Below, in pieces: positions 48,290 to 51,029 of a stretch of 64,000 nt of DNA. Every line of letters starts with the position of its first letter. Positions within the stretch are counted from its first letter, which is position 1. The notes below the pieces were generated by a model. It was not told where the DNA came from and ran no database searches. It saw only the letters and a list, made by a program, of their open reading frames with translations. This stretch comes from Escherichia phage vB_EcoM_LMP33. Location of the stretch: the sequence record MK482689.1. One strand, given 5' to 3'. The position numbers and the translations under genes were made by a program.

Positions 48290-49705
48290 ATGAGCGAGTT
48301 ATTTAAACATGCGCACCTTCATGCAGGTCGAACTGAAAATGGTGCTGTAAACCATACTTCATCAATGTCTGCTCTTGTAGATTTTTACAAAGCTGCTGGT
48401 TCAAGCCGTAGCAATGTAGAAATCTTACCAGACTTGTTCTACAAAGCTTTGCGTGAGGATGTTGATGTTGCAGTTCGTATTTTACTGCATATGCGAGATG
48501 TACGAGAAGGTATGGGTGAGCGTAAAGCCTTCAGAACTGTTTTGCTTCAAGCGATTGAAGATAAAGTTTTAGAGCCTACGCAGGTTCTTCGCATTATGGA
48601 TAAGATTGCAGAACTTGGTCGTTTTGATGACTTCAAAATCTTCGTAGGTACTCGTTTCGAGACAGATGCCTTCAAACATTTAGAAGCAGCATTACTAGAC
48701 CCTGCAACAGCAGGTTTGGCGGCTAAGTGGTTACCACGAGTCAAACCACGTCATAAGCAGTTTGTAAAACGTTTCTGCAAGTTTGCAAACTTGAGTGAGA
48801 AAGAGTACCGCACACTGCTGTCTGCACTATCTGATACAGTTGAACAAAAAATCTCTGCTAATGAGTTTGGTAATATTGACTACAGTAAGATTCCTTCACT
48901 TGCTGCTGCACGTTACCAAAAACTGTTTAACCGTAAAGATGGAGAGCGTTACAAAGCTTACATCGAGTCCTTATCAAAAGGTGAGACTAAGATTAATGCT
49001 GGTGCTGTTTATCCATACGATGTGATTAAATCTCTCAAGTATGGTAATGCAGATGTTGCTAATGAGCAGTGGAAAGCACTACCAAACTGGATGGCAGAAG
49101 GTGAAAACATCCTATGTATGACTGATGTTTCAAGCTCAATGTCTTGGGTGAATTTTGGTTCAATCACTGCACTTGATATTGGTGTATCACTTGCCTTGTA
49201 TGTAGCAGAACGCAATACAGGTTGCTTTAAGGATGAGTTGATGGTTTATTCAACAAACCCTCACTTCATCGAACTGAGTGGTAATTTACGAAACCGTCAT
49301 CGTCAGGTGATGCGACACGTTGAATATGGCTCAACTAACTTACAAGCAGCTTTTGACCGCATTCTTGAGACAGGTAAAAGAAACAACTTGACTCAGAAAG
49401 ATATGCCAAGTAAGCTTATCATCTTCTCCGATATGGAGTTCAATCAGGTTGATGGAGCTAACGGACGTACAAACTTTGAAGCAATTCAGAGTAAGTACAA
49501 AAAAGCTGGATATGAGATGCCACAACTGGTATTCTGGTACTTAGCAAACCGTAATGGTACTTGCGAAGTATCTGTTAAGGATAACGGTGTAGCAATGGTA
49601 TCAGGGTTCTCTCCAGCCACTTTAAAAGCTCTGCTTGGTGGTGAGAAGTTTGACCCAATCAGTGTAATGCTCAAAGCAGTAATGATTGACCGTTATATCT
49701 GGTAA
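48290..49705 (+). CDS. Ro60-like protein (TROVE-like N-terminal region + von Willebrand A domain with MIDAS motif), putative
   Basis: 471 aa; C-terminal region has MIDAS-type DVSSSMS, then G.T and LIIFSDMEF, arranged like the Ro60 vWA domain (human Ro60 DVSASM ... IVFTDNETF as recalled). Confidence 0.4.
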   Translation: MSELFKHAHLHAGRTENGAVNHTSSMSALVDFYKAAGSSRSNVEILPDLFYKALREDVDVAVRILLHMRDVREGMGERKAFRTVLLQAIEDKVLEPTQVLRIMDKIAELGRFDDFKIFVGTRFETDAFKHLEAALLDPATAGLAAKWLPRVKPRHKQFVKRFCKFANLSEKEYRTLLSALSDTVEQKISANEFGNIDYSKIPSLAAARYQKLFNRKDGERYKAYIESLSKGETKINAGAVYPYDVIKSLKYGNADVANEQWKALPNWMAEGENILCMTDVSSSMSWVNFGSITALDIGVSLALYVAERNTGCFKDELMVYSTNPHFIELSGNLRNRHRQVMRHVEYGSTNLQAAFDRILETGKRNNLTQKDMPSKLIIFSDMEFNQVDGANGRTNFEAIQSKYKKAGYEMPQLVFWYLANRNGTCEVSVKDNGVAMVSGFSPATLKALLGGEKFDPISVMLKAVMIDRYIW

Positions 49706-49723
49706 AAAGTTTTAAAAAGGGTA

Positions 49724-49752
49724 TTGACAATGTGTTTAATACCCTTTAATAT
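49724..49752 (+). promoter_or_regulatory. sigma70-like promoter (TTGACA-N17-TAATAT) upstream of tRNA array
   Basis: TTGACA 49724-49729, TAATAT 49747-49752. Confidence 0.5.
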
Positions 49753-49814
49753 GTTCTACATAGAAACGAAATGAGAGCTTTTCTAAGATACTGAAAAATA
49801 TTTTAAAAAAGTTC

Positions 49815-49844
49815 TTGACAATCACTAAAAAATAATGTTAAAGT
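49815..49844 (+). promoter_or_regulatory. second candidate promoter (TTGACA-N18-TAAAGT) upstream of tRNA array
   Basis: TTGACA 49815-49820; weaker -10. Confidence 0.35.
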
Positions 49845-49870
49845 GGTTACATAGAGTTTGAAAAGTTTAT

Positions 49871-49950
49871 CTCCGTTTAGCTCAGTTTGGTTTAGCAGCA
49901 CTTGCTTTGGGAGCAAGGGGTCGAGGGTTCAAATCCTTCAACGGAGACCA
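49871..49950 (+). tRNA. tRNA-Pro (anticodon UGG)
   Basis: Acceptor CTCCGTT/AACGGAG, anticodon arm CTTGC-TTTGGGA-GCAAG, T-loop GGTTCAAATCC, CCA encoded. Confidence 0.65.
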
Positions 49951-49957
49951 AATTAAT

Positions 49958-50035
49958 GTTCCAGTAGACAAAATGGTAAAGTCACCACTCTTTCAAAGTG
50001 GATATTTGAGGGTTCAAATCCCTTCTGGAACGCCA
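49958..50035 (+). tRNA. tRNA-Glu (anticodon UUC)
   Basis: Acceptor GTTCCAG/CTGGAAC, anticodon arm CCACT-CTTTCAA-AGTGG, T-loop GGTTCAAATCC, CCA. Confidence 0.65.
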
Positions 50036-50042
50036 GTTTTGA

Positions 50043-50114
50043 CAGAAGACCAATTACAGCAAACTTAATCTACTCATCTGAAAGTTAATCGGACAAAGAA
50101 GATATTTGGTCTGG
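50043..50114 (+). ncRNA. structured spacer element a (5' CAGAAGACCAATTACAGCAA ... TTGGTCTGG 3')
   Basis: Member of a 4-copy family; closing stem AGACCAA/TTGGTCT. Confidence 0.45.
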
Positions 50115-50125
50115 TCATTAAGAAT

Positions 50126-50202
50126 TGCGGGTATAGAGAAAGGGCGTCTCACATGTCTCATTAGCATGGTATCGGCAGGTTCGACTCCTGCACCCGCCTC
50201 CA
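50126..50202 (+). tRNA. tRNA-Met (anticodon CAU); 1:72 position unpaired (U-C)
   Basis: Acceptor (T)GCGGGT/ACCCGCC, D-stem GAGA/TCTC, anticodon arm CATGT-CTCATTA-GCATG, T-arm GCAGG-TTCGACT-CCTGC, CCA. Confidence 0.5.
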
Positions 50203-50208
50203 AATTTA

Positions 50209-50273
50209 CAGAAGACCGTTTACAGCAATATTTATTAAATTTTTAGCGGAAAAAATTGAAATATACGGTCTGG
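50209..50273 (+). ncRNA. structured spacer element b (5' CAGAAGACCGTTTACAGCAA ... ACGGTCTGG 3')
   Basis: Closing stem AGACCGT/ACGGTCT, covarying with elements a and c1. Confidence 0.45.
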
Positions 50274-50286
50274 TAATACTAAACAT

Positions 50287-50363
50287 GGTTAGGAAGCACA
50301 TAAGGTATGTGCGGTCGCCTGTTAAGCGAATGGCACAGGGTTCGAATCCCTGACTAACCGCCA
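50287..50363 (+). tRNA. tRNA-Asn (anticodon GUU)
   Basis: Acceptor GGTTAGG/ACTAACC, D-stem GCAC/GTGC, anticodon loop CTGTTAA, T-arm CAGGG-TTCGAAT-CCCTG, CCA. Confidence 0.65.
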
Positions 50364-50432
50364 AATTTAGGAGAGAAGCGATTGCTCACCGATTTGTAAG
50401 GTGCAAGTCCTTAGCCTGAATAGAAATTAAAT

Positions 50433-50520
50433 GTGTCGTTATCCCGTAGATGGTAGCGGTGGGGACTGTAAATCCCTTGTCATTGAGACTCGGTAGGTTC
50501 GACTCCTACACGGCACACCA
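50433..50520 (+). tRNA. tRNA-Tyr (anticodon GUA), long variable arm
   Basis: Acceptor GTGTCGT/ACGGCAC, anticodon arm GGGGA-CTGTAAA-TCCCT, long variable arm, T-arm GTAGG-TTCGACT-CCTAC, CCA. Confidence 0.6.
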
Positions 50521-50525
50521 ATAAA

Positions 50526-50603
50526 GGTTATGTAGTTTAATTTGGTTAAAATACTCCCCTGTCACGGGAGATGATGAGGGTTCAAATCCCTTCGTAACCG
50601 CCA
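50526..50603 (+). tRNA. tRNA-Asp (anticodon GUC)
   Basis: Acceptor GGTTATG/CGTAACC, anticodon arm CTCCC-CTGTCAC-GGGAG, T-loop GGTTCAAATCC, CCA. Confidence 0.65.
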
Positions 50604-50664
50604 ATTTTGAGAGGGCTATTTAGCCCCTCCCTTAAAGGGTTCTTACGAGTATCCTTTAAAGGAG

Positions 50665-50740
50665 CAGAAGACCAAATACAGCAAGAACGTATGAAAATTT
50701 CAAGCCAATTTAATTTTGAAAAATTTAAAACTTGGTCTGG
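50665..50740 (+). ncRNA. structured spacer element c1 (5' CAGAAGACCAAATACAGCAA ... TTGGTCTGG 3')
   Basis: Third member of the family. Confidence 0.45.
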
Positions 50741-50753
50741 CTCAACAAATTTA

Positions 50754-50884
50754 CAGAAGACCGTTTACAGCAAAACTTAAACAATCTATTTCTCGGTAAA
50801 GAAAAGGCGAAGGTTCGATTCCTTCACTCGGCAGATGTCGAGTTGGTGTAATGGTAGCACTTAAGATGATAAACAACGGTCTGG
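50754..50884 (+). ncRNA. structured element c2 with embedded permuted tRNA-like module; Y-RNA-like candidate
   Basis: Closing stem AGACCGT/ACGGTCT enclosing, in order, T-arm GAAGG-TTCGATT-CCTTC, acceptor 3' strand ACTCGGC, loop AGAT, acceptor 5' strand GTCGAGT, D-arm GTGT-AATGGTA-GCAC; no anticodon arm. Confidence 0.45.
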
Positions 50885-50885
50885 T

Positions 50886-51029
50886 AATTATCTTTGTAGA
50901 TAAGTTATTAAGCTTACCTGTGAGTATGCGACCACAAAGGGTGAAAGGGTAAATTCTAGATTTAAACCCAACAAGGCACATCGCTACAGACCTTAAGCAA
51001 GTCTGGGTAGCTTATCTACAAAGATAATT
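50886..51029 (+). repeat. 19-bp perfect inverted repeat (AATTATCTTTGTAGATAAG / CTTATCTACAAAGATAATT) enclosing about 106 nt
   Basis: Arms at 50886-50904 and 51011-51029; interior has a CAGACC..GTCTGG mini-hairpin. Confidence 0.55.

Follow-up and report, generated by a model that had tools for sequence, protein, structure and literature searches.

Do the transfer RNA (tRNA) arrays of FelixO1-like phages hold the RNA half of a Ro60-type ribonucleoprotein? Ro60/Y-RNA particles are a classic and still poorly understood part of RNA surveillance, and the question is raised by a locus of Escherichia phage vB_EcoM_LMP33. We analysed a 64-kb stretch of this phage (MK482689.1), called the window in the following, and give all coordinates as window positions. 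A gene for a 471-aa protein at 48290..49705 (+) is followed there by four small repeated elements, E1 to E4. We consider it probable that the window encodes a phage Ro60-type ribonucleoprotein module, formed by a DUF2828-type Ro60-like protein and a new class of partner RNA. The original prediction, which had proposed a Ro60/Y-RNA module, is supported computationally by the protein fold, by the RNA architecture and its covariation and by a strong two-way genomic coupling. From these computed properties we infer expression, processing, direct binding and a biological role.

The region is 100% identical in Escherichia phage vB_EcoM_LMP34 and 96-98% identical in many FelixO1-like phages of E. coli and Salmonella (Ounavirinae, Felixounavirus). 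Of the deposited genomes, 243 match the 3-kb query over 80% of its length or more. ARAGORN finds 25 tRNA genes in the window, all on the + strand between 49871 and 54946, which were confirmed with Rfam.

The 471-aa protein and its predicted fold

The open reading frame (ORF) carries the sequences DVSSSMS and LIIFSDMEF just as first described. Pfam assigns the protein at E<=1 to DUF2828 (partial) and DUF7788 only, and it falls into PHROG 850, which bears the label 'RNA-binding protein'. NCBIfam returned nothing for the protein and a single-sequence search of the PDB gave no match. An AlphaFold model with 31 homologs in the input is confident (predicted local distance difference test, pLDDT, 88.7; predicted template modelling score, pTM, 0.89) and displays a toroid of HEAT-like helical repeats closed by a C-terminal von Willebrand factor A (vWA) domain. 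With Foldseek, the top 10 PDB matches of this model are all full-length Ro60, Rsr or TROVE structures with E-values of about 1e-8, and the isolated vWA domains in the list are five orders of magnitude worse. The comparison with Ro60 and Rsr proposed in the original prediction therefore yields a full-length Ro60-like fold, including the N-terminal helical ring. The DVSSSMS region, earlier likened to the vWA domain of Ro60, indeed aligns to the MIDAS (metal ion-dependent adhesion site) motif DVSASM of Ro60, and the MIDAS residues D279, S281, S283, T349 and D381 are invariant in 31 homologs. Judged by the model, the 471-aa protein is Ro60-like in fold along its whole length and belongs to a sequence family distinct from TROVE. 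A sigma70-like promoter, TTGACA-18-TAAAGT, is suggested by a consensus match 5' of the gene at 48221..48250 (+).

The DUF2828-type family comprises more than 2,500 clusters at 90% identity. With tblastn we found homologs in 709 of 50,697 deposited phage genomes, among them phages of Vibrio, Aeromonas, Listeria, Staphylococcus, Enterococcus, Bacillus and Campylobacter as well as mycobacteriophages, whose copy carries the annotation 'Ro-like RNA binding protein'. Fold and family are also present in giant viruses of protists (Pithovirus, Marseillevirus, CroV, ChoanoV1, Bodo saltans virus), and the DUF2828 domain is further found in plants and mimivirus-like viruses.

A direct ortholog with 97.5% identity and the same synteny is gp130 of Bas63 (Escherichia phage JohannRWettstein). 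This protein has been described as structurally Ro60-like, encoded upstream of tRNAs, and as counteracting the Ppl defence, against which it is needed (PhageMaP preprint, PMC11482910). The Ro60 likeness and the anti-Ppl role of the protein were thus already known. What appears to be new is the identity of the RNAs, their signature and breadth, and the correspondence with elements of giant viruses and with the Class I RNAs of Dictyostelia. The preprint named no RNAs and only offered the guess that 'some tRNA genes are possibly Y RNAs' (PMC11482910), whereas our candidates are four unannotated elements between the tRNAs and not tRNA genes. A literature string search for their motif UUACAGCAA returned siRNA sequences only.

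The RNA elements and their coupling to the gene

The 20-nt motif CAGAAGACCRWWTACAGCAA is present in exactly four copies in the window, all on the + strand (positions 50043, 50209, 50665 and 50754; 0.05 expected from shuffles), and each copy is followed by NNGGTCTGG, which is complementary to AGACCNN. All four paralogs sit among tRNA genes, as had been noticed. They had been placed about 1 kb downstream of the protein gene; downstream they are, but the first starts 335 nt and the last ends about 1.18 kb past the stop codon. Likewise the elements themselves are confirmed, whereas their extents had been drawn too short, as each has an additional outer 4-bp helix.

The four elements have a common fold. 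The outer 4-bp helix is followed by an internal loop with AGA opposite G, a basal 7-bp helix AGACCNN/NNGGUCU, the unpaired UUACAGCAA and a variable interior. The NN positions of the basal helix covary among the paralogs (AA/UU versus GU/AC), and the ends A-AG...CU-G are invariant. E1 (50040..50117, +) is built of UGAC/GUCA, the AGA/G internal loop, AGACCAA/UUGGUCU, UUACAGCAA and a hairpin module, and starts 4 nt after the 3' end of tRNA-Glu, which together with tRNA-Pro occupies 49871..50035 (+). Then follow tRNA-Met (50126..50202, +) and E2 (50206..50276, +) with UUAC/GUAA, AGACCGU/ACGGUCU and UUACAGCAA. The genes for tRNA-Asn, tRNA-Tyr and tRNA-Asp (50287..50603, +) separate E2 from E3 (50662..50743, +), which has GAGC/GCUC, AGACCAA/UUGGUCU and AUACAGCAA. 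E1 to E3 are devoid of tRNA features.

E4 (50751..50887, +) carries in addition a tRNA-like module. Within the outer helix UUAC/GUAA, the order is basal helix, UUACAGCAA, a V hairpin UUUCU/AGAAA, a T arm GAAGG-UUCGAUU-CCUUC, a closed 7-bp acceptor-like stem ACUCGGC-agau-GUCGAGU, a U-purine linker, a D arm whose loop contains GG, and the 3' strand. Unlike a canonical cloverleaf, E4 has a 4-nt loop closing its acceptor-like stem and carries the T arm ahead of the D arm. E4 is called as a canonical tRNA neither by ARAGORN nor by the Rfam tRNA model, to which only the T arm scores (14.9 bits). A further predicted helix of E4, CUUAA/UUAAG, finds no support in phages SUSP2 and Sf18 and is not claimed here.

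All four elements are conserved in phage Si3, in five IMG/VR Felixounavirus contigs, in SUSP2 (Suspvirus) and in Sf18 (Mooglevirus). Compensatory changes occur at three sites. The outer helix changes from UUAC/GUAA to UUGC/GCAA, the basal helix of Sf18 has a G.U wobble (AGGCCAA/UUGGUCU), and the acceptor-like hairpin of E4 changes from ACUCGGC-agau-GUCGAGU to ACACGU-uacg-GCGUGU with unchanged T and D arms. The E4 hairpin behind the T arm is the most telling of the three. The G.U wobbles fit an RNA of the + strand only.

None of the public records annotates E1 to E4. Instead, small 'hypothetical proteins' have been placed over the elements in several GenBank records (LMP34, LMP25, Bas63). In Bas63, E4 and the RNA that follows it are annotated as two small ORFs on the opposite strand, bas63_0137 and bas63_0138 (L218 3930-4204). 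The corresponding small ORFs of the window, 50206-50364 (-), 50607-50780 (+) and 50751-50981 (-), cover tRNAs, E3, E4 and the following RNA, and are most likely spurious.

This following RNA has a length of 148 nt (50886..51033, +) and lies directly between E4 and tRNA-Lys. It has a terminal stem of about 20 bp (minimum free energy -47.9 kcal/mol, z -5.7) and is conserved in all Ounavirinae loci, where compensatory changes are seen in the long stem as well as in an internal hairpin. The hairpin reads AGAC-CUUAAGCAA-GUCU(GG), and AAACC-CUUUAGCAA-GGUUU in SUSP2 and Sf18. Its loop resembles a minimal UUA(C)AGCAA motif; Rfam has no match for the 148-nt RNA. It is a candidate for a fifth family member or a companion RNA.

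The exact Felixounavirus motif is missing in 75 IMG/VR loci with 40-48%-identical homologs of the protein. The distant family became visible only by way of 'orphan' T arms, found on the gene strand directly beside many distant DUF2828-type genes, and by folding of the gaps, which revealed the same architecture with different helix sequences. Klebsiella phage FBKp34 has four elements and mycobacteriophage Lolly9 three, one of them tRNA-like in each phage, and several uncultured phages also share this architecture. In Listeria phage LP-083-2 (three copies) and Campylobacter phage F360 (two copies) the elements are located just upstream of the gene. The family consensus is 5' (A)AG[G/A]NNNN - NU - [A/U]CAGCAA ... 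NNNN[C/U]CU-G 3'.

The apical modules of the long members differ; one class is tRNA-like and the others are unrelated to tRNA. We parsed the tRNA-like modules explicitly because MAFFT aligned some T arms wrongly. The nine elements of this class (E4 and 8 relatives) comprise 7 different T stems, 7 unrelated acceptor hairpins of 6-8 bp and 5 D stems in constant order. A tRNA mimic of another kind is present at L061 5734-5833, where a D arm, an anticodon-like arm and a T arm in normal tRNA order lie inside the basal helix, so that the Y-stem takes the place of the acceptor stem rather than that of the anticodon stem. Marine-phage elements in L015, L016, L019, L020, L026, L030 and L076 have one or two extra AAGCAA or UAGCAA repeats after ACAGCAA, which suggests more than one copy of the recognition element per RNA. 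In Listeria phage LP-083-2 we observed a near-threshold match to the large ROOL RNA (L086 1929-2480; 87.4 bits, threshold 99.1, E 2e-16). It belongs to the tRNA region and precedes the DUF2828-type gene with its three elements by about 1 kb, and RtcB is found 1.3 kb downstream.

How tightly are elements and gene coupled? A strict descriptor of the element gives 0.53 matches/kb on the gene strand at distances up to 1 kb from the gene, 0.05/kb farther away and 0.03/kb on the opposite strand, and 61 of 87 loci are positive. Pairing counts among elements selected by the descriptor are circular as a measure of percent paired. We therefore place the weight on a motif-anchored test, which is not circular, on the strand bias and on a reciprocal scan. 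Close to the gene (up to 1 kb away) and on the gene strand, the motif [A/U]CAGCAA has 139 occurrences, or 0.83/kb compared to about 0.2/kb in the control sets. A 7-bp helix closes 64% of these near-gene motifs, where 12% are expected from shuffled 5' strands and 3-17% are found in the control sets. When 893 kb of distant loci were searched with a family covariance model built from 36 short elements, 65 matches reached E<=0.01, many of them in loci outside the training set. In the window it scores E2 best (53.7 bits), then E1 (44.2) and E3 (40.2), the 5' part of E4 being weak, and it detects no further family copy in the 64 kb. For the reciprocal scan IMG/VR was searched with the RNA signature alone. 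A DUF2828-type gene is nearby in 12 of 31 loci with a fully complementary stem, as opposed to 0 of 73 non-pairing controls with 5 of 7 pairs or fewer (hypergeometric p about 1e-7); among the pairing matches without a gene, many are located at the border of the available stretch. In the gene-bearing loci 14/15 element matches are on the strand of the gene, at a median distance of 265 nt.

The position of the elements suggests another explanation, namely that they are processing spacers of the tRNA operon (guides for RNase P, RNase E or RNase III) or decayed tRNAs without a partner protein. They are wedged among tRNAs with spacers of only 4-10 nt, E4 holds tRNA arms, and pseudo-tRNAs are common in phage tRNA arrays. 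In about 15 loci without any tRNA gene, however, an element still follows the homologous gene, about 30 nt past the stop codon, which argues against a mere tRNA-operon spacer. Moreover E1 to E3 look nothing like tRNAs, UUACAGCAA and the A-AG/CU-G ends are kept across phages with different tRNA genes and hosts, and the closed acceptor stem is upheld by compensatory change instead of decaying. We regard this explanation as very unlikely.

A further possibility is an action in cis on mRNA instead of as free RNA, with the elements serving as terminators, attenuators or autoregulatory operators of the adjacent gene. Many marine phage loci have a single element about 30 nt behind the stop codon, and in the Listeria and Campylobacter phages the elements immediately precede the start codon. 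In the window, by contrast, they lie downstream of separate promoter-like sites, interleaved with tRNAs and up to 1.2 kb from the gene. The elements lack a U-tract and come as 2-4 paralogs whose apical modules differ, one of them being a tRNA mimic, and the Dictyostelium RNAs of the same signature are free and abundant. A function in cis is in our view highly improbable.

Finally, the repeats could act as DNA, that is as inverted-repeat mobile elements or as recombination or homing sites, since an inverted repeat bounds each unit and four paralogous copies are present. Yet the strand bias is strict: 65/65 model matches and 88/93 near-gene descriptor matches are on the gene strand. The G.U wobbles of the helices would be C.A mismatches on the other strand, the positions are fixed in 240+ genomes, and one copy has canonical T and D arms. 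We give hardly any credit to a role as DNA.

Giant viruses and the Class I RNAs of Dictyostelia

Among the Rfam families, the sole recurrent weak matches of the short elements are to Dicty_Class_I_RNA (RF01414). With 21.1 bits for E2, 17.8 for E1 and 23.1-25.2 for relatives (overall range 17.8-25.2), the scores stay below the threshold of 41.5 bits. The RF01414 consensus GaUcuC-CUUACAGCAAU...GagAuC-UG has nevertheless the same anatomy as the phage elements. Class I RNAs are cytoplasmic RNAs of 42-65 nt with a terminal 6-bp stem that covaries, an 11-nt motif placed immediately 3' of the 5' strand, and conserved AAG and CUGU termini; their mechanism is unknown and no representative was reported outside Dictyostelia (Kjellin et al. 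2021, PMC7919456). They are free and abundant and have their own promoters (PMC7919456). The curated D. discoideum sequences, G-UUGAC-C-UU-ACAGCAA...GUCAAC-UG, have the spacing of the phage elements. A sequence profile made from phage elements only recovers 21 of 25 distinct D. discoideum Class I RNAs in the correct register, compared to 3 of 1000 shuffles, with individual E-values that are weak because the motif is short.

In phage elements and Class I RNAs alike, (A)AG is followed by a terminal stem that covaries, by a linker of 2 nt with U as its last base, by ACAGCAA, by an interior that varies, and then by the 3' strand and CUG(U); (CC)UUACAGCAA stands directly after the 5' strand in both. 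The short phage members are similar in size (about 45-77 nt) and also occur as multiple paralogs per genome. They differ in that Class I RNAs are cellular RNAs of eukaryotes transcribed from their own promoters, with a 6-bp instead of a 7-bp stem, and in that they are restricted to Dictyostelia, a taxon to which the phage elements do not belong. Furthermore, the only proven direct binder of a Class I RNA is Rnp1A, a protein with an RNA recognition motif (RRM) (PMC7919456). A peptide search of a partial Dictyostelium proteome for a DUF2828 protein gave only an unrelated vWA protein, and literature term searches for such a protein found nothing.

Two giant-virus metagenome-assembled genomes (GVMAGs) carry matches to the RNA signature. 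In L159, a GVMAG of 196 kb, a divergently oriented DUF2828-type gene is located 300-430 nt from two tandem elements (3477-3616), AAGGUUCU-AU-ACAGCAA...GGGAACCUGUU and AAGAUUCU-AU-ACAGCGA...GGAAUCUGUU, both with AAG and CUGU termini of the Class I type. In L124 an element (6815-6861) lies between two tRNA genes. Homologs of the L159 protein (about 590-600 aa) are encoded on marine contigs together with eIF-1a, RING, kinase and rhodopsin genes. Three of these contigs, L212, L214 and L216, have at about 1550-1760 (-) the sequence [stem]-UUA-AC(A/G)GCAA...[stem]-AG with compensatory stem changes. This element occupies the closest intergenic gap of appreciable size, which is situated some 1.3 kb upstream of the gene, and is on the opposite strand; the marine giant-virus association is looser and should be taken as a lead.

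It is quite possible, though we would not call it likely, that one RNA family, or one recognition code, unites the phage elements, the giant-virus elements found beside or close to DUF2828-type genes or tRNAs, and the Class I RNAs; the AG-stem-UUACAGCAA...stem-CUG module would then be the ligand of DUF2828-type Ro60-like proteins. If so, a second widespread Ro60/Y-RNA-like system would extend across bacteriophages, eukaryotic giant viruses and eukaryotic cells. The Class I RNAs, deemed to be confined to Dictyostelia and without a known mechanism for about 20 years, would gain a candidate protein partner and an evolutionary origin, and hence a testable hypothesis for their function.

The proposed module and related systems

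Neighbouring genes give hints to the function. In several marine phages the gene is flanked by a T4-type RNA ligase 1 and a metallophosphoesterase, in Listeria phages RtcB and an HD phosphohydrolase are near, and in many lineages tRNA arrays adjoin it. Together with the anti-Ppl role, this hints at surveillance and repair of RNA and tRNA, or at evasion of defence.

A number of results weigh against a Ro60-type module. The profile search suggested in the original prediction did not reach Pfam TROVE (PF05731) with the 471-aa protein, nor with any of the six distant homologs run on Pfam, including the mycobacteriophage 'Ro-like' protein, each of which is DUF2828 plus DUF7788. A profile search of the PDB gave as sole match the MIDAS region of the Ro60 vWA domain, at a non-significant E of 1.5. 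On the RNA side, the proposed covariance models Y_RNA and YrlA have no match on E1 to E4 in permissive scans even at E<=10, and the motif GNCGAA(N0-1)G near the 5' end, which has been proposed as the contact for Rsr, is not found in E1 to E4, where UUACAGCAA stands instead. No element was detected by the strict descriptor in 26 of 87 loci, partly owing to motif variants and truncated flanks. RNA-repair neighbours are real but sporadic, with Rnl1 seen in 3 independent groups and RtcB in 1, and the window has none of them. Lastly, gp130 alone is sufficient to rescue T7 on hosts with Ppl, whether it is supplied on a plasmid or in the T7 genome (PMC11482910); at least that activity therefore needs no phage-encoded RNAs. 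The phage RNAs may have a different function, or their place may be taken by host RNAs in the Ppl setting.

The last result also suits the view that E1 to E4 are real structured RNAs whose module is bound by a host factor or another phage protein, and that they are neighbours of the gene only through a block of tRNA and RNA-metabolism genes. This view can also invoke Rnp1A as the only direct binder so far of an RNA with the same signature, and the distance and opposite strand of the marine giant-virus element. On the other hand, the hosts span Enterobacteria, Mycobacterium, Listeria, Campylobacter and protists, for which no single host factor is obvious. The one constant neighbour is the DUF2828-type gene, often within less than 100 nt and on the same strand, also where tRNAs or repair genes are missing. 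We consider a different binding partner unlikely and prefer the Ro60-type module.

We suggest that this module could operate as follows. E1 to E4 are most likely co-transcribed with the tRNAs from two sigma70-like promoters 5' of tRNA-Pro (49724-49752 and 49815-49844; 49724..49844, +), independently of the protein mRNA, because these promoter-like sites come after the stop codon and a terminator-like 12-bp hairpin just behind it (49716..49747, +), which overlaps the first of the two promoters. The first transcription unit would end with tRNA-Lys, tRNA-Met and tRNA-Ile (51034..51267, +). With just 4-10 nt between elements and tRNA ends, the enzymes which trim tRNA 5' and 3' ends would probably also release the elements. 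The A-AG/CU-G helix and the single-stranded UUACAGCAA could then be the docking site for the Ro60-like ring, a role played by the conserved helix in Y RNAs. The apical modules, hairpins in E1 to E3 and a tRNA mimic in E4, may act as 'effectors' that engage other factors. Given its 7-bp acceptor-like stem, E4 could be a substrate of RNase P and the CCA enzyme, as is YrlA of M. smegmatis (PMC4201824). By analogy to Rsr/YrlA/PNPase and the rsr-yrlA-rtcBA operon, the particle might recruit or gate host enzymes of RNA processing and repair, or serve as a tRNA-like decoy, with the outcome that phage RNA and tRNA metabolism are protected from host defences.

The remainder of the array has further features. 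The best promoter-like site of the region (11/12; 51283-51311, +) opens a 330-nt non-coding stretch, which is followed by a tRNA-like element at 51605-51683 (+). The latter scores 31.7 bits with Rfam tRNA and weakly with tmRNA and is not called by ARAGORN. Its T arm, GCGGG-UUCGAGU-CCUGC, is clean, and the element is conserved in other Felixounavirus loci under the label tRNA-OTHER or pseudo. Another tRNA-like sequence, GGGACGA...GGGGUUCAACUCCUCCGUCCCAUGCCA at about 51832-51915 (+), is called by no tool, although it shows acceptor-like pairing and possesses a T arm as well as a 3' CCA. Short hairpins of the type CUUUAAAGG / UCUAAGG...CCUUAGA recur between tRNAs (50636-50661, 51565-51600, 52176-52274 and 53835-53860, +) and may serve the array in processing or as spacers; that at 52176-52274 has weak plant-miRNA matches only. 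The array also contains two protein-coding genes, 53029-53586 and 54038-54772 (+). The sequence AGAGCCA-UUU-GCAGCAA...UGGCUCU inside the former looks like a chance occurrence and was excluded from the family. Upstream, at 45079-46212 (-), a 377-aa protein with three tandem Ig-like repeats (...GYQWKKDG...AGSYTCVV...) is encoded, whose N-terminal region is paralogous to the adjoining 123-aa ORF (46209-46580). The 377-aa protein probably decorates the capsid or the tail.

Should the module prove real, there would be a second Ro60 branch, with a DUF2828-type protein and a new RNA signature, which is far commoner in viruses and often wired into tRNA arrays and placed beside RNA ligases. Candidate RNA partners can now be named for a protein already shown to defeat Ppl, and mis-annotated 'hypothetical proteins' could be corrected in FelixO1-like genomes by the hundreds, including some that serve in phage therapy and typing.

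How does the module compare with known Ro60 systems? The partners of bacterial and phage Ro60 proteins known so far (YrlA/YrlB; Yrl1/2 of phage phiLo) have a GNCGAA or CGAA motif and TROVE-type proteins (PMC4201824, PMC12135203). Thermus phage phiLo encodes phiRo60 and Yrl1/Yrl2 (PMC12135203; PDB 9KOP, 9L5Y). Unlike the protein described here, phiRo60 is a TROVE-domain protein, and Yrl1/Yrl2 were discovered via the CGAA motif, depend on it and have no tRNA array. From Rsr the phage protein differs by being DUF2828/DUF7788 by sequence. From YrlA the phage RNAs differ by UUACAGCAA after the 5' strand and by the A-AG/CU-G ends in place of GNCGAA(N)G, and they are embedded in a tRNA operon. A sequence GGCGAAG is present at the V/T junction of E4; it reads GGAGAAG in Si3 and L003 and is neither conserved nor 5'-terminal. 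At gathering threshold an Rfam scan of the window finds tRNAs only, and no family of Rfam 15 captures the phage elements at threshold. E4 fails the YrlA model (RF02553), whereas relatives reach a sub-threshold but significant 38-40 bits (L085 39.6, L084 37.7; E about 1e-5; threshold 69 bits). A YrlA match in the window at 53884-54006 (17.3 bits) covers tRNA-His/Phe and is the known dimeric-tRNA artefact. The bulged helix of metazoan Y RNAs, GGUCCGA/UUGACU, is not matched in E1 to E4; their internal loop, AGA opposite G, is present with a different sequence.

The likeness is one of organisation. As with bacterial Rsr and YrlA/YrlB, a ring of Ro60 fold with a vWA domain is encoded beside several small RNAs, which here follow the gene on its own strand at a distance of 0.3-1.2 kb. 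The paired RNA ends are the protein-binding stem, in the phage by prediction. One RNA has a tRNA-like module and shorter paralogs have none, and RNA-repair genes (RtcB) adjoin in some cases. The YrlA layout of V, T arm, loop-closed acceptor and D arm (Chen et al. 2014, PMC4201824; Rfam RF02553) is found in this order, within an end-to-end stem, in E4 and its 8 relatives, whose stems covary. A conserved stem combined with variable modules, as seen in the phage RNAs, is the type of organisation known from Y RNAs.

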